IMG/VR virus record: IMGVR_UViG_3300032401_000002
Location: 32,001 to 96,000 of that record
Direction: 5' to 3' (one strand)
From: a virus
DNA length: 64,000 nt
Of this stretch, positions 8,203 through 27,128 are shown piece by piece. The notes under the pieces were generated by a model that saw nothing but the letters and a program-made list of their open reading frames with translations, ran no database searches and had not been told where the DNA came from. The stretch's first letter is position 1, and every line of letters starts with the position of its first letter. A program made the translations under genes and the position numbers.

Positions 8203-9126
8203 CTACTCGTCGTCCTCGGCCGGTGCTGCCTTCTTGGCAACGTCAGCCTTGAGGTTGTCGAAGTTACGACGACGGCGTGCGGGCTTGGTCTCCTCCGCAG
8301 GCTCGTCTCCGTCTCCATCGTCCTCTTCCGGCTCGACAACGGCCCTGCGAGAGCGTGTGCTCTTGCTGCCGCCCGACGCCTTACCTGACTTCTTGTTGCG
8401 CTCCTTGTTGTACGGATTGACAACGAAGTCGTCCGGCAGCGGGGCGATGATCTCCCGCATGCGATCCTCGTCTGCCCAGTCATCGAGCAGAGCCTCGAAG
8501 TCGAACTCTTCGAAGAACTCTTCGAGATCCTCTTCGATGCCATCGAGGGCATCTCCGACCGGCACGAACGTGTAGTTCGTGGAGGTCTTCTCACCCGTGC
8601 GAGTCACGGCGAAGACCGTCTCCTCGATGGGCTTGATGTCATCGTTGACCACGAGCGCGTTCCAGAAGTTGAACGGCGACTGGACAACCAGCCCGACTGC
8701 CGGAACCTCAACAGTCTCACCATCCTTGTTCTCGAACTGCCGTGTCGCGATGTCGAAGCCCACGAGCGTCTGGCGCTTGGTGCCAGTCTTCTTCTCGTAG
8801 ATCGGCTCCAACTCCACCGCGAGACCGATGGTCTTGTTGGTCGGCTTCTCGCCGAACCTGTCCATCAGTTCGTCGTACCCGTCCGATCCGTCGAGCACGG
8901 GATCGCGCCGAGAGATGAACGTGTTGTAGACCGGCCCGCCATCCTCGCGCTCGCCAGTGATGACGAAGTCATGAAGAAGAACGGTGGGCGTGTCGTCAAG
9001 CGCCGACAAGAACTGGATGTACTTCGTCTTGTTGGCCTCGAACTTGAAGCGCGGTGTGAACTTCCCACCTGTCGAACGTGTTGCTGCGGCGGCGATGCTG
9101 TCGCCACCAGTGCGGAACTTAGCCAT
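8203..9126 (-). CDS. single-stranded DNA-binding protein (gp32-like)
   Basis: Replication context, OB-like VTRTGEKTSTNYTF, acidic C-terminal tail, strong SD. Confidence 0.75.
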   Translation of the reverse strand: MAKFRTGGDSIAAAATRSTGGKFTPRFKFEANKTKYIQFLSALDDTPTVLLHDFVITGEREDGGPVYNTFISRRDPVLDGSDGYDELMDRFGEKPTNKTIGLAVELEPIYEKKTGTKRQTLVGFDIATRQFENKDGETVEVPAVGLVVQSPFNFWNALVVNDDIKPIEETVFAVTRTGEKTSTNYTFVPVGDALDGIEEDLEEFFEEFDFEALLDDWADEDRMREIIAPLPDDFVVNPYNKERNKKSGKASGGSKSTRSRRAVVEPEEDDGDGDEPAEETKPARRRRNFDNLKADVAKKAAPAEDDE

Positions 9127-9188
9127 GTGACCTCCGTTTGGTGTGCTTGATTGGCTATGCTAAGCGTAGCATACGCTTAGGGAGGCAA

Positions 9189-14933: not shown

Positions 14934-16808
14934 GTGACCTCTAGTACCTTGATCGGCTCTGATAGCCGACAAATCCTTCAAGACTTGGTGCATTATCGCA
15001 CCTACGCAGGAACCCAGCAGAACGGTAAGAAAGAGACTCGCGAGCAAGTCATCGACAGAGTCCGGGACATGCACCAGACGATGTTCCCGTGGTTCTCGGA
15101 CGAAATCGCTGATGTCTTCCAGGAGGTTTACGCAGGACGGACAGTTCCTTCTATGCGTACCATGCAATTCGGTGGGATGCCCATCTTCAGAAGCAACGCG
15201 CGAGGGTACAACTGTGCCTTTGCTGCGCTGACCTCTTGGAAGGACTTCGCCGACATGTTCTGGCTCCTGATGAACGGAGTCGGCACTGGCTATTCCGTCC
15301 AGCAGCATCACATCGACCAGCTACCCGTGGTTCACGCATTCGAGGGGCAGACATTCACGGTGCCCGACTCGAAGGAGGGTTGGGCTGATGGAATCGTCGC
15401 TCTGCTCGCGAACCCCCAGGTCAAGATCATCACCGACCTGATTCGGCCCAAGGGTGCCCCGATCTCATCTGGTGGTACAGCCTCAGGCCCTGAGTCGTTG
15501 TCGGAGATGTACGAGAAAGTGAGAGCGATTCTCATTAGTGCTGTGGGCCGCAAGCTCACGTCACTGGAGTGCTTTGATGTCATGTGTCACATCGCAGACG
15601 TGGTTGTAGTCGGAGGCGTTCGACGCGCGGCAACAATTGCTCTCTTCGACGCTGACGACAACTCTATGCTCTCGGCCAAGCAAGGATCATGGTGGGAAGA
15701 CAACGCCCAGCGCATGAGGGCTAACATCTCAGCCGTCCTGGTTCGGAGCGATCCTAACTTTGAGACCAAGCTCCGTCACATCCTGGATATGTGCTTCAAG
15801 TCCAACTGCGGGGAGCCGGGCGTGTCGTTGACAAATGACAGGGAGTACGGATTTAACCCCTGCCATGAGATCAGCCTGCGTGATGGCCAGATGTGCAACT
15901 TGACTGAAGTCAACGCGGCGGCTTGCTCTACCGAAGCAGAGTTCTTCGACGCGGTGTCTTCGGCAGCAGCCATTGGCACGCTTCAGGCTGCCTACACAAA
16001 CTTCGAGTACCTTCAGCCGAAGTGGAAGAAGAACTGCGAGCTTGACGCTCTTCTCGGAGTTAGCATCACCGGCCAAGCTGCCGCGTGGGATCTGTTGACC
16101 CCTGAGGTCTTGGCGCGTGGAGCCGAAGAAGCCGCTCGTGTCAATCGCGAATGGGCACAGAAGCTGGGTATCAACTACGCCGCGCGGGTGACCACGACGA
16201 AGCCTTCTGGTTCTACTTCTGCGTGGTGGGGAACGACCAGTGGTATTCATGCCGCTCACTCCCCATACTACCTCCGTCGAGTTCGCGTTGACCGCAAGGA
16301 TGCATTCGGTCAGCACCTGATCGAGGCGTACGGCGAAGGCGAGGCCGAGTCGGGTTCCTTCGTGGAGTCGGACGCTTACGCGCCTGAGAACATCATCGTG
16401 ACGGTGCCCGTCCACATGAACGGGGCGATCTATCGCGAAGGCGAGACAGCTATCGCACTGATGGAGCGCTCGAAGCACATCTTCGAGAATTGGATCATGC
16501 CCGGCCACAGCACTGGCCCGAATCCTCACAACGTTAGCTTGACCGTGAGCTACCGACCCGAAGAGCAGGCAGAGATCACCGAGTGGATGGTAGACAACTC
16601 CGACTCATGGGCTGGCATCAGTCTCCTGCCCTACGACGGTGGCAACTATACCCAAGCTCCATTCGAAGAGATCAGCGAGCACGAGTTCTTCCAGTGGCTC
16701 AAGAAGGTACCAAGCGTTGTGGACTTTGGAGTCATCGACTTCACAGCACAAGTGGATGAGCGGTTGGGCGAGCTTGCATGCTTCGGCGGACAGTGCGAGG
16801 TCATCTGA
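14934..16808 (+). CDS. nrdJ: class II (adenosylcobalamin-dependent) ribonucleoside-triphosphate reductase
   Basis: YNC, GGVRRAATI, NPCHEI, CNLTE, KPSGS, C-terminal CFGGQCE. Confidence 0.95.
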   Translation: MTSSTLIGSDSRQILQDLVHYRTYAGTQQNGKKETREQVIDRVRDMHQTMFPWFSDEIADVFQEVYAGRTVPSMRTMQFGGMPIFRSNARGYNCAFAALTSWKDFADMFWLLMNGVGTGYSVQQHHIDQLPVVHAFEGQTFTVPDSKEGWADGIVALLANPQVKIITDLIRPKGAPISSGGTASGPESLSEMYEKVRAILISAVGRKLTSLECFDVMCHIADVVVVGGVRRAATIALFDADDNSMLSAKQGSWWEDNAQRMRANISAVLVRSDPNFETKLRHILDMCFKSNCGEPGVSLTNDREYGFNPCHEISLRDGQMCNLTEVNAAACSTEAEFFDAVSSAAAIGTLQAAYTNFEYLQPKWKKNCELDALLGVSITGQAAAWDLLTPEVLARGAEEAARVNREWAQKLGINYAARVTTTKPSGSTSAWWGTTSGIHAAHSPYYLRRVRVDRKDAFGQHLIEAYGEGEAESGSFVESDAYAPENIIVTVPVHMNGAIYREGETAIALMERSKHIFENWIMPGHSTGPNPHNVSLTVSYRPEEQAEITEWMVDNSDSWAGISLLPYDGGNYTQAPFEEISEHEFFQWLKKVPSVVDFGVIDFTAQVDERLGELACFGGQCEVI

Positions 16809-17095
16809 TGAACCTCAAGCAAGAGATCCGTCACGGCGAGGTCATCATCGACTTCTATGCTGAGTGGTGTGGCCCGTGCCACGCCGTGGCCCCTGTCCTT
16901 GACAAGGTCAGCCTTGACACGGGCATCAAGATCGTCAAGGTAGACATTGACGCCGAGCGCGAGATCAGCGAGACGTTCGGGGTTGTGTCCATCCCGACGA
17001 TGGTCTACATGATCAATGGAGACGAACAGGCTCGCGTCACTGGCGCTCTCCCTAAGGACAAGTTGATGGCTGCTTTGGGGATCATCGGCACGTAG
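16808..17095 (+). CDS. trxA: thioredoxin
   Basis: DFYAEWCGPC, SIPT; TGATG coupling to nrdJ. Confidence 0.95.
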   Translation: MNLKQEIRHGEVIIDFYAEWCGPCHAVAPVLDKVSLDTGIKIVKVDIDAEREISETFGVVSIPTMVYMINGDEQARVTGALPKDKLMAALGIIGT

Positions 17096-17097
17096 GG

Positions 17098-17127
17098 TTG
17101 ACTGCCTTGTGGGTCGTGTGCTACAGT
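17098..17127 (+). promoter_or_regulatory. sigma70-type promoter of the RNA island
   Basis: TTGACT-N18-TACAGT with extended -10 TG. Confidence 0.7.
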
Positions 17128-17243
17128 TAGACCTCAAGTGTGAAGCGCCTCTGCTAACGAGGCACCGAGATCGGGAACGCCCTCTCTGACCCCCTCGGTG
17201 AAAGAAAGAGAGGGCCGTGGCCCCGTGGAGACGGGGCAAAGAT

Positions 17244-17273
17244 TTCAACTGCTTCTGAACCGTGTACTATAAT
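17244..17273 (+). promoter_or_regulatory. second promoter of the RNA island
   Basis: TTCAAC-N18-TATAAT. Confidence 0.6.
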
Positions 17274-17483
17274 TTGGGGGCAAGCAGTTACTGAAGGTAT
17301 ACCGATGGTGTAGTTTGCCATCTGATCGCCTGGCTCTTCGGAGCAGGGAGATACATAGTTCGGGTAGCCCATCTGGCGCAGCATTGCTACGGGGATCGCA
17401 ACCGAGGCAGATGCCGAACGAAGTAGAGTTTCGAGACTGGGGGTCGATCCCCAAGGTTGGCCCCCAGTCTCAAAGTTTATCGT

Positions 17484-17555
17484 CGCGGATTGGAGCAGTG
17501 GTAGCTCGCTAGGCTCATAACCTAGAGGTCGTTGGTTCGAATCCATCATCCGCTA
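17484..17555 (+). tRNA. tRNA-Met(CAT), initiator-like
   Basis: Cloverleaf, C1 mismatch, fMet-type D arm, loop CTCATAA. Confidence 0.9.
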
Positions 17556-17920
17556 TGAGGCCACCGCCCTAATACCCACGGGTAGTCGGGTTGTGCTGGC
17601 CTCTCTAGCTCAGGTGTATAACAGGACGGCTTGCCGTCTGAGGCCACCTGGGAACGGGTACGGGGTGGAGGCTGGTCGCCGTCTGCTTGTGGTGTAGCGT
17701 CGTCTTCGGACGGGGTGTAATCCGCAGGTTTGATATAGAGCAGTCCCACTCCGTCCCACCTATCCCTTTCTAGCTCACACAAGACTGTCGCGAAAGCGGC
17801 ACCACACGCGCATCTATGCGCGGATTGAGCAGGGTGGCACACAACCTTGACCAAAAGAGTGTGTCTGCGCATGAGATCGCAGGAACCATCTCACGGGCAT
17901 GGCCCGTTACAGCCATACTA

Positions 17921-17994
17921 CAGCGTGTAGCTCAGTCTGGTAGAGTGTCCGTCTGGGGGACGGAGAGTCGAGGGTTCGAGTCCCTCCACGCTGA
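17921..17994 (+). tRNA. tRNA-Pro(GGG)
   Basis: Cloverleaf, loop CTGGGGG. Confidence 0.93.
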
Positions 17995-18002
17995 TAGCAT
18001 GA

Positions 18003-18078
18003 CTGGATGTAGCTCAGTTTGGTTCAGAGTACCCGATTCGGATTCGGGGAGTCGGAGGTTCGAATCCTCCCATCCAGA
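18003..18078 (+). tRNA. tRNA-Pro(CGG)
   Basis: Cloverleaf, loop TTCGGAT. Confidence 0.92.
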
Positions 18079-18082
18079 TAGA

Positions 18083-18157
18083 CAGGTCGTAGCTCAGTCT
18101 GGTAAGAGTGCCCGCCTTGGACGCGGGGAGTCGGTGGTTCGAATCCACCCGGCCTGA
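18083..18157 (+). tRNA. tRNA-Pro(TGG)
   Basis: Cloverleaf, loop CTTGGAC. Confidence 0.93.
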
Positions 18158-18391
18158 TACCTCCTATCCTGAGGGGGAACCCCGCGTTGACCGTGGGATC
18201 GTAAGCGCGTCTCGGCGCTCGTGGAAACTACCCGGACATAGGCGGGCAAGTCTGCGAGAACAACCTGGGGCGAAGCGCGTACCCTGCGCGAGCGGTTAAC
18301 AGAGCACAAGGTTTACATGGTTCGGCTCGTCGTGATGGTCTGTCGCGCTCCTTGTGCCGCGCGATGGATGGCAGGCCATCCTGAGCAACTT

Positions 18392-18755
18392 GGGCATGCC
18401 CGGTTTCGACAGTCGTGTATGGGCAATGAGATGCAGCGGGTCGCGGCCTTATCGCGCCAAGCCTTGGACAGGGCAACCACATGCAGACGACAACATCGTC
18501 TCCACGGACTACATCGACAACGGCATCGCCGCTCTCGAAGACTTCCTCGCGGAAGCGTCCCTCGTCACGGTCTAGCGAGTACCAATAGACCGCTGTGTCG
18601 CCCAGCTTAGGCGACTGACTGCTCGGAAAGTGACGAGTTGACCCGGAGAGGGAAAGTCCTCTGCCCTGGTGGAGGGCACACAGCCCCCAAAGAAGCTGCT
18701 AGAAGTCTTGTTGTAACCGCTCGGTTGGACGAGGGTTCGACTCCCTCCATGTCCA
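18392..18755 (+). ncRNA. ssrA: tmRNA
   Basis: Acceptor GGGCATG/CATGTCC-A with G3.U70, 5' GGTTTCGAC, 3' GGACGAGGGTTCGACTCCCTC T arm, tag ORF 18483-18575 starting GCA. Confidence 0.93.
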
Positions 18756-18901
18756 CTGCAAGAATCAAGAAATCCCCTAGGGGCGTCGTTGTCTGCTACC
18801 AGTTCCGCAGGAGCAGCCAGGTGCGGAACACCTGCGAGGCGTATGAGGGAGAGTCACGAGAGTGACACGGAGATGTCTTTCCCTAGGGGCATCTCTCACA
18901 C

Positions 18902-18970
18902 GCGGAGTAGGCTAAGGCAGCCAAGTGGTCTCCAACACCACAGGACAGGGTTCGATTCCTTGACGCCGCG
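18902..18970 (+). tRNA. tRNA-Trp(CCA), atypical core
   Basis: GTGGT-CTCCAAC-ACCAC arm, T arm, G73; acceptor mismatch and odd connector lengths. Confidence 0.75.
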
Positions 18971-19055
18971 CTTCATCACTGAAAGGTTCGAGGGTTGACT
19001 GAAGGTACGGTTCGTCTGCTCACGGCAGGCAGCTAGGCTTCAGCAGTGATGGCAT

Positions 19056-19129
19056 GCCCCGTTAGTCTAACGGTTCAGGATACCACCCTCTCACGGTGGG
19101 GATTGCGGGTTCGAATCCCGCACGGGGTA
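19056..19129 (+). tRNA. tRNA-Glu(CTC)
   Basis: Cloverleaf, loop CTCTCAC. Confidence 0.92.
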
Positions 19130-19170
19130 CTGCCTTCGGGCACTGGGCCACGCAGCATCAGTGGCATCAC

Positions 19171-19242
19171 TGGAGGGTAGCTCAATGGTAGAGTGTCCCG
19201 CTGTTAACGGGGTGGTTCTGGGTTCGAGTCCCAGCCTTCCAG
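19171..19242 (+). tRNA. tRNA-Asn(GTT)
   Basis: Cloverleaf, loop CTGTTAA. Confidence 0.93.
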
Positions 19243-19254
19243 CTTGCAACACAT

Positions 19255-19328
19255 GGCCTGTTCGTCTAGCGGTCTAGGATACCGGGCTTTCAACTCGGAC
19301 GACAAGGGTTCGAATCCCTTACGGGCTA
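19255..19328 (+). tRNA. tRNA-Glu(TTC)
   Basis: Cloverleaf, loop CTTTCAA. Confidence 0.92.
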
Positions 19329-19427
19329 CTGACGGTGCCACGAGCCGTCGTAAGCAACTCGTGGTCGTGAACAGAGAGGGACGACGGGAAACCGTCCTCT
19401 GACACGGATGAGAAAGCTCCCACACCT

Positions 19428-19500
19428 TAGAGGGTGGTCTAATCGGCAGGACGCCAGGCTCTGACCCTGGAGATTGAAGGTTCGATCCCTTCCCCTCTAG
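19428..19500 (+). tRNA. tRNA-Gln(CTG)
   Basis: Cloverleaf, loop CTCTGAC. Confidence 0.92.
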
Positions 19501-19505
19501 CTCTC

Positions 19506-19577
19506 AACAGGGTAGACTAACGGTAGGTTCCCTGGCCTTGAACCAGGTCGGTCTAGGTTCGAATCCTAGCCCTGTTA
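19506..19577 (+). tRNA. tRNA-Gln(TTG)
   Basis: Cloverleaf, loop CCTTGAA (C33). Confidence 0.82.
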
Positions 19578-19662
19578 CTGCAACAAGATTGCCACGCCCC
19601 TATGCCGGGGCCAATCTAGGCGGGTATTGCGCCCGTGTGTCCAGGTGAAAGCCCTGGCTTAT

Positions 19663-19737
19663 GCCCCTCTAGCCCAACTGGCCAGAGGCAACGGCTTTAA
19701 AGACCGTTCAGTGAAGGTTCGAATCCTTCGGGGGGCA
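19663..19737 (+). tRNA. tRNA-Leu(TAA), short variable arm
   Basis: Actinobacterial-type Leu body, loop TTTAAAG, C31.A39 mismatch. Confidence 0.82.
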
Positions 19738-20121
19738 CTGAAGGACACGCACGTCTGCGCGAAGGGGTTGCTCCCGGAGAGCTTAGGGCGTCCGTGGTGG
19801 TGTGGCCGAGTAGGACTGGATTCCTCTCCACGAGGGGTACAGTTGCGAAGGCACAACCGGCGAAAGTGACGGGCAACCGGCACGAGTAGTAGCCGCGACA
19901 AGGGTGTTGCGTTCGGCCAGAGCCAATCGGTGAGGTCGGTCTCAGTCAGCACTCGTCTGGGAGTAGTTACCTGGGCAGACGGTGGCGCTTGACAGCGCAG
20001 GGAAGGTACGACCGAAACTGTAGCCATTGACATGGACAAGCAGTGGATAGGTCGTCGGAGGGTTGCTGAATCCCTTCCACCACTCCTTCTATCTCTTTCT
20101 CCCCGCACAGTAACTAGCACT

Positions 20122-20301
20122 ATGGCGGGAATCATGATCAGGTGCTCAGGCACGAAGGACGGGGTACATTGTGCCCGGTACACTCGTTTCATTGGAGCGC
20201 CGAATGTTGACTGGACGTGCGAAGGGTGCCTTGCTGGTCGAGCACCATTCGAGCACAAGTCGAAGGTTGTCCAGCAGCAGATGAAGCACAAGAAGAAGTA
20301 G
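20122..20301 (+). CDS. small zinc-finger-like basic protein inside the RNA island
   Basis: MAGIMIRC(8)C...CEGC...KHKKK, 59 aa from ATG 20122. Confidence 0.6.
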   Translation: MAGIMIRCSGTKDGVHCARYTRFIGAPNVDWTCEGCLAGRAPFEHKSKVVQQQMKHKKK

Positions 20302-20304
20302 CTT

Positions 20305-20378
20305 ACCTCGCTAGCTCAAACGGATAGAGCAAGGGTCTTTTAAACCCAAGGTTCTGGGATCGTACCCCAGGCGAGGTA
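20305..20378 (+). tRNA. tRNA-Lys(TTT)
   Basis: Cloverleaf, loop CTTTTAA, T loop ATCGTAC. Confidence 0.87.
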
Positions 20379-20541
20379 CTCTTGAACGACTATTCGGCTC
20401 CTCTGGACGCTGCGCGGCTTCACCACCGCTCGACTCCATGTGGTTCATGGAGGGTCAAGGTTGTTGACGGTAGGCACGCTCGCGACGTAGCCGAAAGACA
20501 GCTTACCGAAGGGCAAGACCGCACTGGTCGTTCAAGTTATT

Positions 20542-20615
20542 GGATCGCTAGCTCAGTTAGGCAGAGCAGGGGACTCTTAATCCCAAGGTCGTCGGTTCGA
20601 TCCCGACGCGATCCA
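20542..20615 (+). tRNA. tRNA-Lys(CTT)
   Basis: Cloverleaf, loop CTCTTAA. Confidence 0.94.
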
Positions 20616-20635
20616 CTGGCCGCAAGGCCGACAGG

Positions 20636-20717
20636 GCCGGAAGGGCGAGGGTTCGAATCCCTCCCGGACAAGGAGCTTCGGCTCACCGTCCGGTAGCTCA
20701 GTGGGAGAGCGTCCGGC
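20636..20717 (+). ncRNA. circularly permuted tRNA-like RNA (YrlA-like topology)
   Basis: Order: anticodon 3' strand, T arm, acceptor 3', UUCG hairpin, acceptor 5', D arm, anticodon 5' strand. Confidence 0.8.
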
Positions 20718-20722
20718 GTTAT

Positions 20723-20805
20723 GCTCTGGTGGTGGAATTGGTATACACACTAGCCTTAGAAGCTAGCGCCCACAGGGATTGAGGGTTCGACTCCCTCCTA
20801 GAGCA
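20723..20805 (+). tRNA. tRNA-Leu(TAG)
   Basis: Long variable arm, loop CTTAGAA. Confidence 0.93.
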
Positions 20806-20857
20806 CTAGGTAGACGTACCGAGACCCAGCGGATGGGTCAACCTAAAGTCCGCACCC

Positions 20858-20941
20858 GCGCTCGTGATGGAATGGGTAGACATGCTAGGTTGAGAGCCTA
20901 GTGGCCGCGAGGTCGTGCAGGTTCAAGTCCTGCCGTGCGCA
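20858..20941 (+). tRNA. tRNA-Leu(GAG)
   Basis: Long variable arm, loop TTGAGAG. Confidence 0.9.
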
Positions 20942-20942
20942 T

Positions 20943-21012
20943 AGGATGGTAGCCCAACAGAGAGGCAGCCCGACAAGGGAAGAGTTGCCGGAATCGAGTC
21001 CGGCCCATCCGA
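20943..21012 (+). ncRNA. tRNA-like element without a canonical anticodon arm
   Basis: GGATGG/CCATCC acceptor, TAGCCCAA..AGAGGC D arm, GCCGG-AATCGAGT-CCGGC T arm. Confidence 0.6.
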
Positions 21013-21016
21013 CCCT

Positions 21017-21090
21017 GGTACGCTAGCTCAATTGGTAGTAGCGTTCGGTTGAAGCCCGAAAGGTTCTCGGTTCAAGTCCGAGGCGTACCA
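21017..21090 (+). tRNA. tRNA-Phe(GAA)
   Basis: Cloverleaf, loop TTGAAGC. Confidence 0.9.
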
Positions 21091-21100
21091 CTGTAGTATT

Positions 21101-21175
21101 GCCCTCTTAGCCCAATCCGGCAGAGGCACCAGCCTCAAACCCTGGTCAGTGGAGGTTCGACTCCTCCAGAGGGCA
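21101..21175 (+). tRNA. tRNA-Leu(CAA), short variable arm
   Basis: Loop CTCAAAC, C31.C39 mismatch. Confidence 0.85.
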
Positions 21176-21189
21176 TAGTACCACCACAT

Positions 21190-21264
21190 GCGGATCGTAG
21201 CTCAATCGGTCAGAGTCGTGGCTTGTGAAGCCATCGGTTGCGGGTTCGAATCCCGTCGATCCGC
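21190..21264 (+). tRNA. tRNA-His(GTG)
   Basis: G-1:C73 pair, loop TTGTGAA. Confidence 0.92.
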
Positions 21265-21271
21265 CTTGTAC

Positions 21272-21344
21272 GTGCGAATGGCTCAGTAGGTAGAGCATCT
21301 GGTTGCCAATCAGAAGGTCGCGGGTTCGAACCCCGCTTCGCACA
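21272..21344 (+). tRNA. tRNA-Gly(GCC)
   Basis: Cloverleaf, loop TTGCCAA, A73. Confidence 0.92.
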
Positions 21345-21465
21345 TCGGTAGCTGGTTGGCGAGTCCTTCCCATGCAGCCTGGGCGACCTGAGTCTCGGCC
21401 GAGATGAGGGAACCTTGTGAATCGGGTCGTTGGCCAACTTGTGCAAACCATCCAGGTGCCGTCCT

Positions 21466-21539
21466 GCTCCATAAGCTCAGTCTGGCAGAGCGCTGGTCTT
21501 GTAAATCAGGGGTTGTCGGTTCGATCCCGACATGGAGCT
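21466..21539 (+). tRNA. tRNA-Thr(TGT)
   Basis: Cloverleaf, loop CTTGTAA. Confidence 0.93.
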
Positions 21540-21542
21540 TAC

Positions 21543-21615
21543 GACCCGGTAACTCAGTGGACAGAGTCACGGTTTCCTAAACCGTTGGTCACAGGTTCGA
21601 CTCCTGTCCGGGTCA
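21543..21615 (+). tRNA. tRNA-Arg(CCT)
   Basis: Cloverleaf, loop TTCCTAA, A20. Confidence 0.93.
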
Positions 21616-21620
21616 TGTTT

Positions 21621-21693
21621 GGCCTGTTAGCTCAGTGGACAGAGCGTGGGGCTTCTATCCCCAGCGTCGGAGGTTCGATCCCTCCACGGGCCA
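21621..21693 (+). tRNA. tRNA-Arg(TCT)
   Basis: Cloverleaf, loop CTTCTAT. Confidence 0.93.
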
Positions 21694-21834
21694 CTTTACA
21701 CAAGACGCTCGAAGCGTCCTTGTACTAGATGATGCCCTTCGGGGCCGGGCGGGGCGATCCATTGGCCTGGGAACAGAACGAGGTCGAACACGACGGGTGA
21801 CAGTTGAACGGCGGGACGCCCGGTGCCCGCACAT

Positions 21835-21906
21835 GCGAAGGTAACTCAACGGTAGAGTCTCAGTTTTCCAAACTGGTGGTTGCGGGTTCGATTCCCGTCC
21901 TTCGCT
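21835..21906 (+). tRNA. tRNA-Gly(TCC)
   Basis: Cloverleaf, loop TTTCCAA. Confidence 0.92.
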
Positions 21907-21951
21907 CTCGGTGGGTGAGTCCAGGTTCGCCCTGTAAGTAGCCCACCGCTA

Positions 21952-22024
21952 CGCTGTGTAGCTCAGTTGGTAGAGCAATCCCCTCATAAGGGAGAGGTCG
22001 GAGGATCGTAGCCTCCCATAGCGA
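21952..22024 (+). tRNA. tRNA-Met(CAT), elongator
   Basis: Cloverleaf, loop CTCATAA, T loop ATCGTAG; Ile2 identity not excluded. Confidence 0.85.
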
Positions 22025-22130
22025 CTTCGGTCAGTGCTTAGGCACAGGACAACGAACCTCCCAAGACCCGGTACGACTCCACAACATGGGTGGAGCAACG
22101 TTCTGATCAAAAGCCGGGTTGGCCGAACAC

Positions 22131-22201
22131 GCTCCTATAGCTCATGTGGAAGAGTCATCCTTCGTACGGATGTGGTCGCAGTTCGACTCTGCGTGGGAGC
22201 T
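22131..22201 (+). tRNA. tRNA-Thr(CGT)
   Basis: Cloverleaf, loop TTCGTAC. Confidence 0.85.
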
Positions 22202-22204
22202 TGC

Positions 22205-22276
<72 letters not shown>

Positions 22277-22385
22277 TGCAACAAGACTCTCCTCGATGCG
22301 TGAGGGGCTGCTCACCAGCCCGCAAAGCGCAAACACGGGAGATAGACCGGGCGAACGGGAGTGAGCTTCGCCTGGTCGAACTTTC

Positions 22386-22458
22386 GGCCTGTTAGCTCAG
22401 CGGACAGAGCGAGTGGCTTCGAACCACTAGGTCGGGGGATCGTACCCCTCACAGGCCA
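22386..22458 (+). tRNA. tRNA-Arg(TCG)
   Basis: Cloverleaf, loop CTTCGAA, T loop ATCGTAC. Confidence 0.9.
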
Positions 22459-22468
22459 TGTAGTACCT

Positions 22469-22540
22469 GGTTTCGTACGAATCTGGTGAAACGGTTCCCC
22501 TGTCACGGGAATGAGGCGGGTTCGATTCCCGTCGAGACCG
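22469..22540 (+). tRNA. tRNA-Asp(GTC)
   Basis: TTCCC-CTGTCAC-GGGAA arm, G73, weak D stem. Confidence 0.82.
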
Positions 22541-22691
22541 CTATGGGCTGTAGAGTCCTGGGGTGTTGGAGAATCCCCGAAGCTGCGAGGTAGACCAACC
22601 TCCTCGCGGCCTCTAGTCGCGCTCCTTGAAAGCTGGCCCGCAAGGCCGGTGGAAGTATCGGGCAAAACCGACGCGACTCATTCAGGGCCTG

Positions 22692-22763
22692 GGGCGGTTA
22701 GCTCAGTGGGAGAGCAGGTTCTTTACACGTACAAGGTCGGGGGTTCGAATCCCTCACCGCCCA
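22692..22763 (+). tRNA. tRNA-Val(TAC)
   Basis: Canonical D/T arms, loop TTTACAC, mismatched anticodon stem. Confidence 0.87.
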
Positions 22764-22771
22764 TACCAGGA

Positions 22772-22877
22772 TTCAGCGCTAGTGTGCCTGCCTGGGGCCG
22801 AACCACCCGTATGCCGGTGGGGGAATCAGCACCCGAGGGTACTCGGAGTTCAGGTGCGAACCCTGAGCGCTATTGAA
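22772..22877 (+). ncRNA. tRNA-like RNA with D-loop insertion and a tetraloop in place of the anticodon
   Basis: AGCGC/GCGCT acceptor, GTGT/GCAC D stem, CCGAG-GGTA-CTCGG, TCAGG-TGCGAAC-CCTGA T arm. Confidence 0.65.
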
Positions 22878-22879
22878 CG

Positions 22880-22953
22880 TGACCCGTAGCTCAGTGGTAA
22901 GAAGCGGGAGGCTTATATCCTCTTGGTCGTGGGTTCGATTCCCACCGGGTCAA
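22880..22953 (+). tRNA. tRNA-Ile(TAT)
   Basis: Cloverleaf, loop CTTATAT. Confidence 0.88.
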
Positions 22954-22954
22954 T

Positions 22955-23190
22955 CACGAACGGAAAGACAAGCGCGGTCGCAAGATCGAGGAAAGTCAGG
23001 CCACCTGAACCAGGGGAGACCAATGCAACCTGGGGAAACGTGACGAGGACGTGGGAGAAGGTCGCAAGGTCTTCGGCTTACCACCTAATCGGCGGGGTGC
23101 AACCTCAAGCGGACGGTCATCTCAGACCGGACAGGTAGAGGGCACAGATAGATGCTTGTCCTAGACAGAAGCCTGCTTACGAAGTTCGTG
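22955..23190 (+). ncRNA. rnpB: miniature RNase P RNA
   Basis: P1 CACGAAC/GTTCGTG, P2 GACAAGC/GCTTGTC, GAGGAAAGTC, 3' ACAGAAGCCTGCTTA with compensated P4, AGATAGATG. Confidence 0.88.
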
Positions 23191-23244
23191 TACACATGAG
23201 AGTGGTTTGGCGGTCGTGACCCATACCTCACGCGCTCTCACCTT

Positions 23245-23317
23245 TGGCTCGTAGCTCAGTTGGGAGAGCACTTGATTGACATTCAAGAGGTCGTCGGATC
23301 GAGGCCGACCGAGCCAA
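23245..23317 (+). tRNA. tRNA-Val(GAC)
   Basis: Cloverleaf, loop TTGACAT, T loop ATCGAGG. Confidence 0.88.
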
Positions 23318-23388
23318 CTTGCCCACCCGTCGCGTTGTAGGGGAGTGGCATAAGCCCCCGTCTGTTGCAACGCCAGCCGGGGGAACTC

Positions 23389-23462
23389 GCGGTTGTAGCT
23401 CAGTGGAATAGAGTATCAGGTTGCGAACCTGAGGGTCGCTGGTTCGAATCCAGCCAATCGCA
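23389..23462 (+). tRNA. tRNA-Arg(GCG)
   Basis: Cloverleaf, TCAGG-TTGCGAA-CCTGA. Confidence 0.9.
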
Positions 23463-23653
23463 CTCAGCACTACAAGTTTGGGGACGGCCCCGTCAGGCCC
23501 CTTCCCAACGCTACCTCTGGCGAGATAGGGGTCGTGTCAACTCGACCACGAAAGTGTCGGGGCGCTGCGAATCACAGAGCGTGTTATCTGTGGTCGTCTG
23601 CCGGGAGACTACCCCGTGTCAAACCAGGTGTAGCTGACGGCTCGCCTGGCCTA

Positions 23654-23727
23654 GGACTTGTAGCTCAGTGGTATAGAGCATCCGTCTGATACGCGGAGGG
23701 TCGGTGGTTCGACTCCACCCAAGTCCA
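23654..23727 (+). tRNA. tRNA-Ile(GAT)
   Basis: Cloverleaf, loop CTGATAC. Confidence 0.93.
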
Positions 23728-23849
23728 TGAGAAGTAGCTCAGATGCCATCTCGCATGTGTCTCCCGGCCAGAGCCGGATAGGGTGCATGCGGGGCAGAGC
23801 GGGCCGATGATCACGGTCGCGACGAGGGGCTGGCAATCCTCCTTCTCTA
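23728..23849 (+). ncRNA. tRNA-like RNA with a 56-nt structured D loop
   Basis: GAGAAG/CTTCTC acceptor, TA-GCTC...GAGC D stem, GGCCG-ATGATCA-CGGTC, variant T arm. Confidence 0.65.
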
Positions 23850-23852
23850 CAT

Positions 23853-23923
23853 AGTGATGTGACCGAGAGGCCAGGTCGTTGGCTGCAACCCTTCGCACAG
23901 CGGTTCGAATCCGCTCATCACTT
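23853..23923 (+). tRNA. tRNA-Cys(GCA)
   Basis: Loop CTGCAAC, U73, mismatched anticodon stem. Confidence 0.83.
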
Positions 23924-23927
23924 CTTC

Positions 23928-24001
23928 GGGCGGCTAGCTCAATTTGGGAGAGCAACGCGCTTGCACCGCGTAGGTTGGGGGTTCAAGTCCCCCGCTGTCC
24001 A
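23928..24001 (+). tRNA. tRNA-Ala(TGC)
   Basis: G3.U70, loop CTTGCAC. Confidence 0.93.
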
Positions 24002-24003
24002 CT

Positions 24004-24103
24004 ACCGAAAGAACGGGTTCGAATCCCGGCCGCGCGACCCAAGCTAGAGGGGTATACACCAAAGGCGAAGGTCTGATCAGTAGTGTAAGGGCAGCACGTC
24101 GGT
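24004..24103 (+). ncRNA. second circularly permuted tRNA-like RNA
   Basis: ACCGA...CGGG-TTCGAAT-CCCG...TAGTGTAAGGGCAGCAC-G-TCGGT; ACCGA pairs with TCGGT. Confidence 0.62.
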
Positions 24104-24110
24104 TTAACTT

Positions 24111-24186
24111 GGGTTGTGGGGCTGCATGGGGTGGCCATCTCGCTTGCACCGAGAACAACAGCAGGGTTCGATTCCCTGACGATCCA
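24111..24186 (+). tRNA. tRNA-Ala(TGC), atypical second copy
   Basis: G3.U70, loop CTTGCAC; G8G9, unusual D loop, 7-nt variable loop. Confidence 0.78.
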
Positions 24187-24278
24187 CTAGGAAGCAGAAG
24201 CACGCAGATGACTCGTAGGTGTTCTAGAAACCAGGGCCGTAACGCAACCGTGCCCCATCAGCGCTGCATCCTACTCGT

Positions 24279-24362
24279 GGTAGGTTACTCAAGTGGTTAC
24301 GAGAGCGGGTTGCTAACCCGTCAAGTCGCAAGGCTTCCTGGGTTCGAATCCCAGACCTACCG
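24279..24362 (+). tRNA. tRNA-Ser(GCT)
   Basis: Long variable arm, loop TTGCTAA. Confidence 0.92.
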
Positions 24363-24367
24363 TACCA

Positions 24368-24451
24368 GGAAGGTCGCATTGGCGTGCTTATGCGGTTTGA
24401 ACCCGTTGATGGGGCTAATCCCCCGTGGGAGTTCGACTCTCCCACCTTCCT
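24368..24451 (+). tRNA. tRNA-Ser(TGA), atypical D arm
   Basis: Long variable arm, loop TTTGAAC, T arm GGGAG-TTCGACT-CTCCC. Confidence 0.75.
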
Positions 24452-24455
24452 CTTT

Positions 24456-24536
24456 GCTGGCGCTTGCTCAATGGTGAGGGCTACTGGCTGTAACCCAGAA
24501 GACACGTCTATGGGGGTTCGACTCCTCCCGCCAGCA
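24456..24536 (+). tRNA. tRNA-Tyr(GTA)
   Basis: Loop CTGTAAC, variable-arm hairpin, A73. Confidence 0.8.
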
Positions 24537-24542
24537 CTCCGC

Positions 24543-24578
24543 GACACCCCTGCATCCTTCGGGATGTGGGGGTGTTTC
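24543..24578 (+). terminator. hairpin ending the RNA island
   Basis: ACACCCCTGCATCC-TTCG-GGATGTGGGGGTGT followed by TT. Confidence 0.7.
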
Positions 24579-24613
24579 ACGTTGCCTTGTTGTTGGTCTG
24601 CTACAATACGAGA

Positions 24614-24853
24614 GTGAGCACAGTTCACCCCCACGCTAAGCGTTCGCTCGTGGCTCGTCCTCATGCGGTTGCCGGGCACGAGCACACCCACGTAGACGAG
24701 CGAGGCTTCGTCGTCAAGTGCTACCACACTTGCCGAGGCGTTCTTACGTCGTGGCAGTTCTGGCTAGGCACGTTCCTGGCCTTCCCGCTAGAGCACGCCA
24801 TTTGGGAGAAGCTCTGGCCCTTCAATCTTCTAACGCAGTGGATGGGACTCTAG
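24614..24853 (+). CDS. His-rich small membrane protein (probably leaderless)
   Basis: GTG 6 nt after TGCTACAAT; HEHTH then hydrophobic C-terminus. Confidence 0.6.
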   Translation: MSTVHPHAKRSLVARPHAVAGHEHTHVDERGFVVKCYHTCRGVLTSWQFWLGTFLAFPLEHAIWEKLWPFNLLTQWMGL

Positions 24854-25042
24854 ATGGCCAGCACGACCAAGATCGATTTCCCCGGCTACCCTCGTCATGA
24901 TGACGGTGGCGGAACGTGGCAAGGTCGCAAGCCGAAAGGCGAGAAGTGTCACAACTCCTTCGCAGCCTTCGTGGCCAAGGTGAAGGTCTTCAAGGAGGGC
25001 AAAGCCCACCTGGAGCGTCACCACAACGGATACGGCCTGTAG
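24854..25042 (+). CDS. hypothetical protein
   Basis: 62 aa ORF abutting the upstream stop. Confidence 0.6.
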   Translation: MASTTKIDFPGYPRHDDGGGTWQGRKPKGEKCHNSFAAFVAKVKVFKEGKAHLERHHNGYGL

Positions 25043-25044
25043 GG

Positions 25045-25073
25045 TTGACAAACCCTCTCGAAGCGTGTACTCT
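25045..25073 (+). promoter_or_regulatory. early promoter (leaderless helicase mRNA)
   Basis: TTGACA-N17-TACTCT, ATG 6 nt downstream. Confidence 0.85.
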
Positions 25074-25079
25074 TAGTAC

Positions 25080-27128
25080 ATGAGCGAAATCACCACCCTT
25101 TCGGACGAACTCTGGAGCGACATCGAGCACGGTCGTGTTGACCGCTCCAAGTTCCTCTTCCTCGAAGAAAGCGACTCCCTCAAGCGCCAATGGAAGGTCG
25201 AGTCGTTCGATGAGAACTACTGGGCGCGCATGGGTGACACGGTCACGAGGTTCTCGACCGTGTCGGTGAGCAGTTACCCTCGCTTTGCACGGGTGGCTGA
25301 CGAGATGGGCTATACGCCTGTCTTCATGGACGATCCGACCGATCACTTTGACTGGGTCACGTCATTGGATCGCGATCCTCTCGTCGCCGTCAATTCCTCC
25401 CTGGAGGGAACGATTGGTGGTTTCTTGCCGTTCCAGGCACGGGGCCTGAACTTCATGAAGAGCACCAACCGCTGCGTCTACTTCCAGTGGAGCACGGGCA
25501 CGGGCAAGACGTTGGCAGCCGAGGGCACGATCCTCGTCAAGTCCAAGGAGGGCTACGGCGAGAACAAGGACGAGGGCTTCGACCTCTGCTTGTACGTTGT
25601 TAAGCCCAACAACCTCGTGAACACCCAGCGCAAGCTCAAGGATCACACGGGCCTGACGGGACGCATCTTGTCCGGCACGCCCAAGCGCCGCCAGACCATG
25701 ATCGCAGAGACCGCTGCTGCGATGGTCGCTGGCGAGCAGCCTATCCTGATCTTCAACGCCGAGAAGTTCCGCGAGGACACCGAGCTTCTGAAGCTCTTGG
25801 TCGAGGATCACAAGCTCCTGGTCATCTTCGATGAGATGCCGACCAAGTACGCCAACCGTGGCACGGCGCTGTACAAGGCGACGGCCGAGGTTCTCTACAC
25901 GACTTTCGTCATCCCCCAGGACGGCAAGGGCAAGGGCAAGCCGCTCTTCTACCCGAGCGTCAAGGGTGACCGCCCGAGCGAGGTCTTCTACGTTGCCATG
26001 TCGGCCACGCCGATCTCGAACTCACCCGAGGACTTCTTCAACTCGATCCGCCTCATGGACTCCTCGATCTACGGGAGCGTCAAGGACTTCAACAACCAGT
26101 TCGTGTCGTCGCGTGACCGCTGGTTCCAGATCGACGGTTGGAAGTCTCTCGACCTGATGGGCGCGATGGCGGCACACATCGTTCACCAGGTTGACAAGCA
26201 CACTGACCCGGAGATCAACGCTCAGTTCCCGACCAAGCTCCCGCCCGAGACGGTCTACTGCGACATGGACTCGGCCACTGAGAAGCTGTACGCCAAGCTC
26301 CAGAAGGAGTACGAGAACATCAAGAACGGTTCGATGCTCGACTTCGAGGAGATCCTCGCAGCCATCGGCACCTTCCAGATGCTGTGCTCTAATCCCCGCT
26401 CAGTGCTCATCTCGGCCAAGATCCGCGAGGAGTACGAGGCCAAGCTCGATGACTTCCTGGCCACCGACCCGAGCGAGGACGAGATCAAGGAGTTCGAGAA
26501 GAAGTTCCGCGACGGTAGCTTGGTCGCCCTCAAGCTCCGCACCCTCGTCAATGACGATTCCAAGTTCACGGACGAGAACGCCAAGGGCGAGTGCATCGTC
26601 TCCAAGATGATCGAGCTTCGTGAGCGCATCGAGCAGAATGACGACAAGGTCATCGTCTTCTCGACCATGAACCAGACTCTGCTTCCCCTGATCTCCGAGT
26701 GGCTCGACAAGTGGGGCATCACGCATGTGTCGTACCACGGTGGTATCACGGGCCACGCCAACAAGCAGGCGATCATCGATGAGTTCCGCACGAACCCGGA
26801 CGTAAAGGTCTTCCTGAGCACGGATGCTGGGTCGGACTCCATCGATCTTCCCGAGGCCACCCTCACCATCCACTACGACCTTCCCTGGACGAAGAGCAAG
26901 ATCACGCAGCGCGAGAATCGGCAGGATCGCATCGACTCGACCAAGGATGCAGTCCAGGTGGTCACCCTCGCAGTCCCGTTCACGGTCGAGGATCGCAAGG
27001 CCGAGATCCTGAGCATCAAGCAGGGATACCACGACTCGCTCTTCAACGGTGTCATCTCCGAGACCGAGGGCAAGGCCGTGAAGTCTGACTTCTTCTACAT
27101 CCTGACGGGCAAGCGAGAAGGCGAGTAA
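25080..27128 (+). CDS. SNF2-family (SF2) helicase
   Basis: LPFQARG, STGTGKT, FDEM, SATP, KVIVFS, YDLPW...QRENRQDRI. Confidence 0.88.
   Translation: MSEITTLSDELWSDIEHGRVDRSKFLFLEESDSLKRQWKVESFDENYWARMGDTVTRFSTVSVSSYPRFARVADEMGYTPVFMDDPTDHFDWVTSLDRDPLVAVNSSLEGTIGGFLPFQARGLNFMKSTNRCVYFQWSTGTGKTLAAEGTILVKSKEGYGENKDEGFDLCLYVVKPNNLVNTQRKLKDHTGLTGRILSGTPKRRQTMIAETAAAMVAGEQPILIFNAEKFREDTELLKLLVEDHKLLVIFDEMPTKYANRGTALYKATAEVLYTTFVIPQDGKGKGKPLFYPSVKGDRPSEVFYVAMSATPISNSPEDFFNSIRLMDSSIYGSVKDFNNQFVSSRDRWFQIDGWKSLDLMGAMAAHIVHQVDKHTDPEINAQFPTKLPPETVYCDMDSATEKLYAKLQKEYENIKNGSMLDFEEILAAIGTFQMLCSNPRSVLISAKIREEYEAKLDDFLATDPSEDEIKEFEKKFRDGSLVALKLRTLVNDDSKFTDENAKGECIVSKMIELRERIEQNDDKVIVFSTMNQTLLPLISEWLDKWGITHVSYHGGITGHANKQAIIDEFRTNPDVKVFLSTDAGSDSIDLPEATLTIHYDLPWTKSKITQRENRQDRIDSTKDAVQVVTLAVPFTVEDRKAEILSIKQGYHDSLFNGVISETEGKAVKSDFFYILTGKREGE

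Follow-up and report, generated by a model that had tools for sequence, protein, structure and literature searches.

A one-strand phage RNA island with a full tRNA set, a tmRNA, a reduced RNase P RNA and folded spacers, a subset of which is conserved

We analyzed a 7.4-kb RNA island located at positions 17131–24578 of a 64,000-nucleotide (nt) stretch of phage DNA (hereafter, the window), which comprises bases 32001–96000 of a 150,167-bp IMG/VR virus record (IMGVR_UViG_3300032401_000002; estimated completeness 93%). The island carries transfer RNA (tRNA) genes for all 20 amino acids, a transfer-messenger RNA (tmRNA) and a reduced RNase P RNA, many of them separated by long, folded spacers that an earlier note on this DNA had read as a repertoire of about 25 structured RNAs. 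We find that the island is probably a self-processing, untranslated tRNA operon whose spacers include a handful of real small RNAs and are otherwise mostly fast-evolving, self-folding linkers. To compare the island with homologous loci, we ran a pattern scan of IMG/VR and JGI metagenomes, which returned a single distant relative, on two contigs (L004, L002), and further relatives, from close to distant, were obtained through protein look-ups; additional relatives are recorded in ENA assemblies ERZ1305449, ERZ1426815, ERZ27248074 and ERZ27247977. The arrays compared were the following.

L021, L022 and L023: strains with 95.7–99.8% DNA identity to the window; full or partial array
L027: ribonucleotide reductase (RNR) 79% identical to that of the window; full array
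L018 and L028: helicase 74% identical to that of the window; both array ends
L020: helicase 82% identical to that of the window; 3′ end of the array
L004, L024 and L025: distant from the window; syntenic arrays

The order of the tRNA genes is syntenic in L004, L024, L025 and L027. The framework of the island in the window, an RNA operon on a single strand (+), consists of five features.

17095–17127, + strand: promoter, GGGTTGAC, an 18-nt gap, TACAGT and then TAG; the sole sigma-70-like site on the + strand of 16900–25100
17483–24537, + strand: tRNA array, 39 genes, 20 of 20 amino acids (ARAGORN)
18392–18758, + strand: tmRNA with a G3:U70 acceptor stem and the 30-residue tag ADDNIVSTDYIDNGIAALEDFLAEASLVTV (Rfam RF00023, 56.7 bits vs a gathering score of 47)
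22954–23195, + strand: RNase P RNA, reduced type A, 242 nt, abutting tRNA-Ile(tat) (Rfam RF00010, E = 4e-13)
24543–24576, + strand: terminal hairpin of 15 bp, the likely operon terminator (z −4.73; 92–94% conserved in L018 and L020)

The inventory given in the earlier note was thus confirmed: 39 tRNA genes for all amino acids, 37 of which pass the Rfam tRNA model (RF00005) at the gathering score (those missed are Ala-tgc2, 24111–24187, and Ser-tga, 24368–24452), no encoded CCA after any of the 39 or after the tmRNA, a tmRNA, and an RNase P RNA that matches the type A model from end to end. The ends proposed for the island also fit the promoter and the terminal hairpin. The promoter belongs to a motif, GGGTTGAC-N17/18-TAC(T/A)(C/G)TTAG, that occurs on the + strand at 17095, 25042, 27314 and 53844, that is, ahead of the RNA operon and three other gene blocks, and GGGTTGAC by itself is found 9 times in place of the 2.4 expected. 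Two candidate internal promoters, GGGTTGAC at 18992 and TTGACC near 17850, were rejected as both lack the phage −10 motif. With one promoter, none internal and a hairpin at the end, the island would be read as a single transcription unit.

RNase P RNA is seen as a cellular housekeeping ribozyme, and the parts of the literature covered by our search contained no description of one encoded by a virus. The phage RNA covers positions 1–367 of the RF00010 model at 49.4 bits (below the gathering score of 100) with large deletions that remove about 125 model positions, chiefly from the specificity domain and P18: the 140 model positions of the specificity-domain part (spans of 15, 15 and 110) are aligned to just 88 nt, and P18 (24 positions) is wholly absent. 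What is retained comprises P1, P2, P3, P5, the P15 region and both strands of P4 (GAGGAAAGUC and ACAGAAGCCUGCUUA, the latter with ACAGAA..GCUUA), whereas the specificity domain is down to two hairpins. In type A RNase P RNA, the specificity domain (P7–P14) reads the T and D loops of the tRNA. Compared with bacterial type A RNA (E. coli M1 RNA, the product of rnpB), with which it shares P1–P3, P4, P5 and the P15 region, the phage form thus measures 242 nt instead of about 370, has a two-hairpin specificity domain and no P18, and is encoded inside a tRNA array without a phage rnpA, for which we found no gene in the phage genome.

The RNA is conserved and covaries among relatives. In six related lineages, a homolog lies at the same place, flanked on one side by a tRNA of type Val-tac or Ile-tat and on the other by the Val-gac tRNA; that of L027 reaches 52.4 bits with RF00010. 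An alignment of seven members of this clade yields 30 consensus pairs, 10 of them compensatory, including three in P4 (for example, AU to GC and CG to AU); helices other than P4 covary as well. In strains L021 and L023, the differences from the window within 22205–24600 lie almost entirely inside the RNase P RNA (15 mismatches and 7–8 gap positions), and the allele that they carry has one apical hairpin swapped and two stems with compensating changes (window 23052–23090; L021:7868–8116). Reduced forms also recur outside this lineage: a pattern of the two P4 strands at the spacing of the mini form matched 14 IMG/VR contigs, of which 11 carry tRNA genes in the fetched locus and 10 have the match among several tRNA genes. 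One of these unrelated phages encodes a 236-nt RNase P RNA between tRNA-Ile(tat) and tRNA-Gly(tcc) that scores 105.5 bits, above the gathering score (L009:352–587). A viral RNase P RNA with little beyond the catalytic half, covarying and recurrent in unrelated phage tRNA arrays, would amount to a natural experiment in minimal design and would reveal a way in which phages gain control of tRNA maturation. Separately, one RNA region (2438–2853, 6827–7195, 8947–9135) of L007, an unrelated 115-kb IMG/VR phage contig, was seen to contain a GOLLD RNA (199.7 bits), a tmRNA, 18 tRNAs and a motif pair of the mini RNase P type.

The genome that contains the window encodes, outside the window, a candidate enzyme for completing the tRNA 3′ ends.

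L031:1195–4392 (equal to G000:C1:14194–17391), − strand: open reading frame (ORF) of 1065 codons for a CCA-adding enzyme

Class II CCA-adding enzyme domains (PolyA_pol head, RNA-binding, HD and tRNA_NucTran2_2) occupy residues 388–817 of this protein; the roughly 380 N-terminal and 250 C-terminal residues have no domain assignment.

Turning to the spacers, we measured folding as a z-score against dinucleotide shuffles for the 27 spacers of at least 40 nt. The mean z is −1.86, and 11 of the 27 fall below −2. For the 23 spacers of up to 200 nt the mean is −1.85, compared with −0.08 for 69 length-matched coding segments of the window (Mann-Whitney p = 3.5e-8), and a helix joining the two ends is present in 14 of 22 spacers, where shuffles predict 7.75 (P = 0.0045). 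The claim that most long spacers are structured, end-closed elements therefore holds for the class as a whole, contrary to one of the outcomes that the earlier note had named as refuting it (folding no better than shuffles), although not for every member: four spacers fold no better than shuffles, namely 18158–18391 (z 0.07), 21345–21465 (−0.06), 22764–22879 (−0.21) and 24003–24110 (+0.57). The spacers of the distant arrays L004, L024 and L025, which share almost no sequence with those of the window, are equally shifted (z −1.5 to −2.05). That non-homologous spacers fold equally well suggests selection on foldedness and not on particular RNAs.

Sequence conservation divides the spacers sharply. 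Homologs of 18 of the 27 are found in phages whose flanking genes have 74–82% protein identity to those of the window, and about 10 spacers (starting at 18972, 19131, 19330, 19739, 21345, 21695, 22277, 23464, 23728 and 24188) are 76–96% identical to L027, far above the 37–60% identity at four-fold sites that served as the neutral benchmark between the window and L027 (RNR and thioredoxin 37%, helicase 55%, the small ORF in the array 60%). The other nine have no homolog in any relative, and several of the best folders (z −2.1 to −3.3) are among them.

19579–19662, 20380–20541, 20807–20857, 20942–21016, 21908–21951, 22026–22130, 22542–22691, 23196–23244 and 24003–24110, + strand: lineage-specific spacers (9)

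In the distant syntenic arrays, only 3 of the 27 can be traced, namely the 3′ module of the Met>Pro spacer, a permuted tRNA and a tRNA-like RNA with a long arm, the latter two at other junctions there. Spacer length is not kept at orthologous junctions either. The Thr-cgt/Thr-ggt junction, for example, spans 3 nt in the window and 202, 86 and 165 nt in L022, L027 and L004, respectively, with mutually unrelated inserts; the L022 insert (L022:6924–7125) is a unique end-closed module in a strain otherwise 99.4–99.8% identical to the window. Conversely, L027 lacks the 162-nt module at 20380–20541 and has only 2 nt between the two Lys tRNAs. The array as a whole is a mosaic: compared with L027, a number of tRNAs show 100% identity and the rest 40–75%, and 99%-identical strains differ by divergent patches. 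One such patch, in the tmRNA>Trp spacer (window 18783–18900), covers about 120 nt, includes a compensating stem change and is about 25% divergent from L021 and L022, strains that are almost identical to the window elsewhere in the array except for the L021 RNase P allele and the L022 202-nt insert; this stretch looks like the product of recombination.

Covariation was assessed on minimum-energy folds computed from the window alone, so that the relatives had no influence on them. When both positions of a spacer pair had changed, pairing was kept in 59 of 97 cases, compared with 38% for random canonical position pairs (overall p = 3e-4); one-sided changes showed no excess. Judging by these alignments, the spacer covariation is real yet thin, and it is found in the conserved subset. 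Hence the notion of some 25 structured RNAs forming a fixed repertoire survives in part: about 10–12 are conserved, some with compensatory pairs, whereas the absence of homologs for 9 of the 27, the persistence of only 3 of the 27 in distant arrays and the turnover at junctions speak against the remainder.

The conserved elements are as follows.

17131–17482, + strand: structured leader RNA, 352 nt, with fully conserved blocks at about 17215–17246 and about 17353–17420 (z −3.10)
17778–17920, + strand: 3′ module of the Met>Pro-ggg spacer (same junction in L027, 86% identical, and in the distant L024, 78%)
18972–19055, 19131–19170 and 19330–19427, + strand: three conserved spacers among the Trp, Glu, Asn, Glu and Gln tRNAs (81–96% to L027)
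19739–20121, + strand: conserved non-coding part of a 566-nt spacer, upstream of the small ORF (81.5% to L027; a 52-nt block, 20039–20090, at 100%)
20617–20722, + strand: circularly permuted tRNA-like RNA, read directly from the sequence
21345–21465, 21695–21834 and 22277–22385, + strand: partly conserved spacers (67–92-nt cores at 91–94% to L027)
22781–22874, + strand: tRNA-like RNA whose variable arm is long, whose T loop is a variant (GUGCGAAC) and whose anticodon loop is non-canonical
23319–23388, + strand: conserved spacer (91% to L018)
23464–23653, + strand: conserved spacer (79% to L027, 72% to L018)
23728–23852, + strand: Ile-like tRNA mimic (84–88% identical in L027, L018 and L020)
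24188–24277, + strand: conserved 90-nt spacer before tRNA-Ser(gct) (96% in L027, 99% in L020)

The leader is 62–69% identical overall, with 67–69% to L027 and L028, and its consensus fold comprises 84 pairs, 13 of them compensatory. No Rfam family matched it, and IMG/VR scans with the leader block and with the Ile-like mimic returned nothing. The Met>Pro-ggg 3′ module contributes 34 pairs, 5 compensatory, and for the spacers at 23319–23388 and 23464–23653, two-sided changes relative to L018 keep the pair five times and break it twice.

Three of the elements are shaped like tRNAs. In 20617–20722, the order runs from the 3′ strand of the anticodon stem through the T arm, the 3′ strand of the acceptor, a UUCG hairpin, the 5′ strand of the acceptor and the D arm to the 5′ strand of the anticodon stem, such that the break falls in the anticodon loop. 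This layout is also present in L027 at the same junction and in two L024 copies elsewhere, with the acceptor-like stems changed. Bacterial Y RNAs such as YrlA mimic tRNA (PMC4201824), and the phage element shares with YrlA (RF02553) the permuted topology of a T arm, a closed acceptor-like stem and a D arm. An identity with YrlA was nevertheless rejected: the element scores 33.7 bits vs a gathering score of 69, a plain tRNA-tRNA junction of L027 reaches 35 bits, and the phage genome contains no Ro60/Rsr (TROVE) gene in a search with positive controls. The second element, 22781–22874, displays acceptor-like, anticodon-like, long variable and T arms, and is called by ARAGORN only at the 80% threshold, with a 4-base anticodon. 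It is 87% identical in L018 and 72% in L004, at a different junction there, and 5 of its 26 pairs are compensatory, with at least one in each of the four helices. The third, 23728–23852, which follows tRNA-Ile(gat), combines an acceptor-like stem, a D arm into whose loop a hairpin of some 55 nt is inserted, an intact-looking, anticodon-like loop (AUGAUCA) and a T loop that is aberrant at 9 nt; from its makeup, it looks like a diverged copy of tRNA-Ile(gat). Its 40 pairs are 95.6% paired, with 6 compensatory, and its covariation score is 0.229, compared with 0.117 in shuffles (reached in 0 of 500) and 0.02–0.09 with slid partners.

The earlier note had allowed for a single credible ORF inside the array. 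One was indeed found, of 59 and not 89 codons.

20122–20301, + strand: gene for a 59-residue protein, lysine-rich in its tail, whose four cysteines are spaced much as in a zinc ribbon (L027 counterpart 83% identical in amino acids)

The longer, 89-codon frame (20032–20301) was rejected because coding-type conservation is confined to its last 59 codons; mismatches relative to L027, counted over the longer frame 20032–20298 that contains the ORF, are distributed 12/9/28 by codon position. The 59-residue protein matched no Pfam family. In the distant syntenic array L024, an ORF of the PDDEXK_5 nuclease family lies between tRNA-Val(gac) and tRNA-Arg(gcg) (L024:6232–6642), indicating that protein genes are able to enter such arrays.

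We propose, as the probable interpretation, that the operon running from the promoter at 17095–17127 to the hairpin at 24543–24576 would supply 37–39 tRNAs, the tmRNA and the phage's own reduced RNase P RNA. The latter would pair with the RnpA protein of the host, a partner presumed because the phage lacks rnpA, and would cut the 5′ ends of the array tRNAs, while the 3′ ends would be trimmed and receive CCA from the phage's class II CCA-adding enzyme. About 10–12 spacers would be selected RNA elements, that is, the leader, three non-decoding tRNA mimics and several modules of 40–190 nt, freed by tRNA processing; given that the three tRNA-shaped modules are placed like tRNA genes, they could plausibly be released by RNase P together with 3′ trimming. 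The approximately nine lineage-specific spacers would be rapidly replaced, self-folding linkers in which the fold and not the sequence is selected. Such a self-contained fold would let adjacent tRNAs fold independently and, on an untranslated transcript of 7.4 kb, would give Rho and exonucleases few unstructured stretches to act on. Of the remaining spacers, one holds the 59-residue protein gene, one would be the terminator and at least one would be tRNA debris. Modules outside the core appear to be replaced too fast to form a fixed repertoire.

Several observations weigh against this interpretation or restrict it. At 14 junctions, neighboring genes are separated by spacers of only 3–14 nt, so that tRNAs have no strict need for an insulator. 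The deficit of C-over-G windows in the array (12.9% of windows vs 21–33% in nearby coding sequence) agrees weakly with Rho avoidance. Paired and unpaired spacer positions change at similar rates (0.206 vs 0.215), a pattern expected less from a purely structural role than from recent ancestry or a function tied to the sequence, and given the mosaic structure of the array, part of the spacer conservation possibly reflects recent recombination and not constraint. Each covariation count comes from just 3–7 sequences (3–4 for the spacer elements). Finally, the RNase P RNA lies below the Rfam gathering threshold, and its ribozyme activity is a prediction. Predicted from sequence, too, are the single transcription unit, the sites of processing and any accumulation of RNAs from the spacers.

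A more ambitious version of the same scheme, which we regard as possible but clearly less probable, would make the island a self-sufficient tRNA factory with its own minimal RNase P ribozyme, CCA enzyme and full tRNA set, and would add a dozen small RNAs under selection: the three mimics would engage, as decoys or sponges, host enzymes or defenses directed at tRNAs, and the leader would control read-through of the operon.

Extending such roles to the entire spacer set is unlikely to be correct. Under this explanation, essentially all of the roughly 25 spacers would be discrete trans-acting small RNAs, either decoys against host defenses that target tRNAs or regulators, and the array would work as their release cassette. 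The folding excess and end closure are compatible with it, as are the three tRNA mimics with covariation and the finding that, in the conserved subset, loops are as conserved as stems. The tRNA mimicry of bacterial and phage Y RNAs (PMC4201824) provides an analogy, and a precedent comes from the T4 stable RNAs C and D, small non-tRNA RNAs that stem from the T4 tRNA region and have no known role (PMC3014915). We liken the spacers to RNAs C and D by position; compared with T4, the present array would hold many more such elements, most of them poorly conserved. However, 9 of the 27 spacers lack a homolog even in near relatives, only 3 of the 27 reappear in distant syntenic arrays, presence and absence differ between 99%-identical strains, and the four spacers named above fold no better than shuffles (z −0.21 to +0.57). 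The spacers of the island form a graded set, from conserved mimics to fast-turnover hairpins, and the gradation makes the role of non-tRNA RNAs in phage tRNA clusters, open since T4 RNAs C and D, testable. If most spacers are instead no more than insulators of folding or shields against Rho, they would yield a useful rule for designing long operons that are not translated.

The opposite possibility, that the spacers are neutral debris consisting of decaying tRNA duplicates and random filler, with structure left over from old cloverleaves, we consider improbable, even though some debris is evident. In all five arrays, the spacers contain more T-arm-like hairpins than chance predicts (13 vs about 0.5 expected), which implicates tRNA duplication and remodeling as one source of spacers, and T-arm remnants are found in the window at 17442 and 24017 as well as in relatives. 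Ala-tgc2 (24111–24187) fails the Rfam tRNA model, and the preceding 108-nt spacer (24003–24110) retains a single T-arm remnant, at 24017. At this junction, L027 has one Ala-tgc, which matches only the 3′ end of Ala-tgc2, and neither Ala-tgc2 nor the spacer has a counterpart there. Taken together, these features suggest a duplication that is decaying. The free variation of spacer lengths between arrays would also be expected of debris. Yet recognizable tRNA pieces, these remnants included, occur in only 2–4 window spacers, and most have no tRNA trace. Moreover, the folding z is shifted across the whole class in all arrays, about 10 spacers are far above four-fold-site conservation, and compensatory changes exceed the null. 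Nor are most of the spacers hidden tRNAs, an option that we rejected because ARAGORN adds none outside the annotated genes at the 90% threshold and three candidates at 80%.

The least probable explanation, which we give very little credence, holds that the end-closed modules are inserted miniature mobile elements with the closing stems as terminal inverted repeats: the L022 module sits exactly between two tRNAs of a nearly identical strain and the module at 20380–20541 is absent in L027, but no two window spacers are alike and the L022 insert matches no other compared sequence (hence we rejected a multi-copy family), the junctions show no visible target-site duplication, and the window array contains no transposase or homing endonuclease.

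Several known systems resemble parts of the island. Large-phage tRNA arrays with a tmRNA, such as those of mycobacteriophages (PMC5966550, PMC1475703), share with it the dense one-strand tRNA block and the tmRNA located by replication genes; the present array differs in being complete for 20 amino acids, in the lack of encoded CCA, and in its own RNase P RNA, mimics, leader and 30-residue, TV-ending tag. Theta ribozymes, which are hepatitis delta virus (HDV)-like, adjoin tRNAs in gut phages and have been linked to tRNA processing (PMC10879173). The common element is the presence of catalytic or structured RNAs beside phage tRNA genes, whereas in our array the catalytic RNA would be RNase P, and on the array strand the spacers gave no match to HDV-like, hammerhead or other small ribozymes. 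Small ribozymes in the spacers were rejected on the basis of a permissive Rfam scan of 16500–25200 that gave one chance-level match, on the opposite strand (drz-agam-1, E = 7.5).

The tmRNA has features of its own. Its acceptor strands, GGGCAUG and CAUGUCC, produce the G3:U70 pair, and the tag frame at 18483–18575 (ARAGORN, relaxed threshold) spans 30 codons from GCA to TAG. The usual tmRNA tag ends in the LAA type, whereas ADDNIVSTDYIDNGIAALEDFLAEASLVTV terminates in TV, and from this ending the phage tag may not be a standard ClpXP degron. The tmRNA of L027 keeps a similar tag peptide, ASDEIASTDYIDNGIAEIEAFLAEKSLATV, suggesting that the tag is selected as a peptide. No SmpB was found in the phage genome.

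Genes for a DNA polymerase III alpha subunit and a DnaB-type helicase flank the island upstream, with a class II RNR and thioredoxin just upstream, and a SNF2-type helicase follows just downstream, a gene set that is typical of a large lytic phage. The closest cultured-phage helicase is only about 27% identical, and the weak helicase matches, mostly to actinophages, reach at most about 27%; assignment to a host, including the label of actinophage used earlier, leans on these matches and is unproven. Megablast and blastn searches against cultured phages gave short tRNA matches only and, for the RNase P RNA, none, and the helicase as a single-protein query against IMG/VR returned no relatives. 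Across JGI, ENA and Logan assemblies, a helicase of identical protein sequence is present on at least 24 contigs, and sediment samples of JGI that contain the phage include 3300032516, 3300032053 and 3300031772, suggesting that the phage is common in its habitat.

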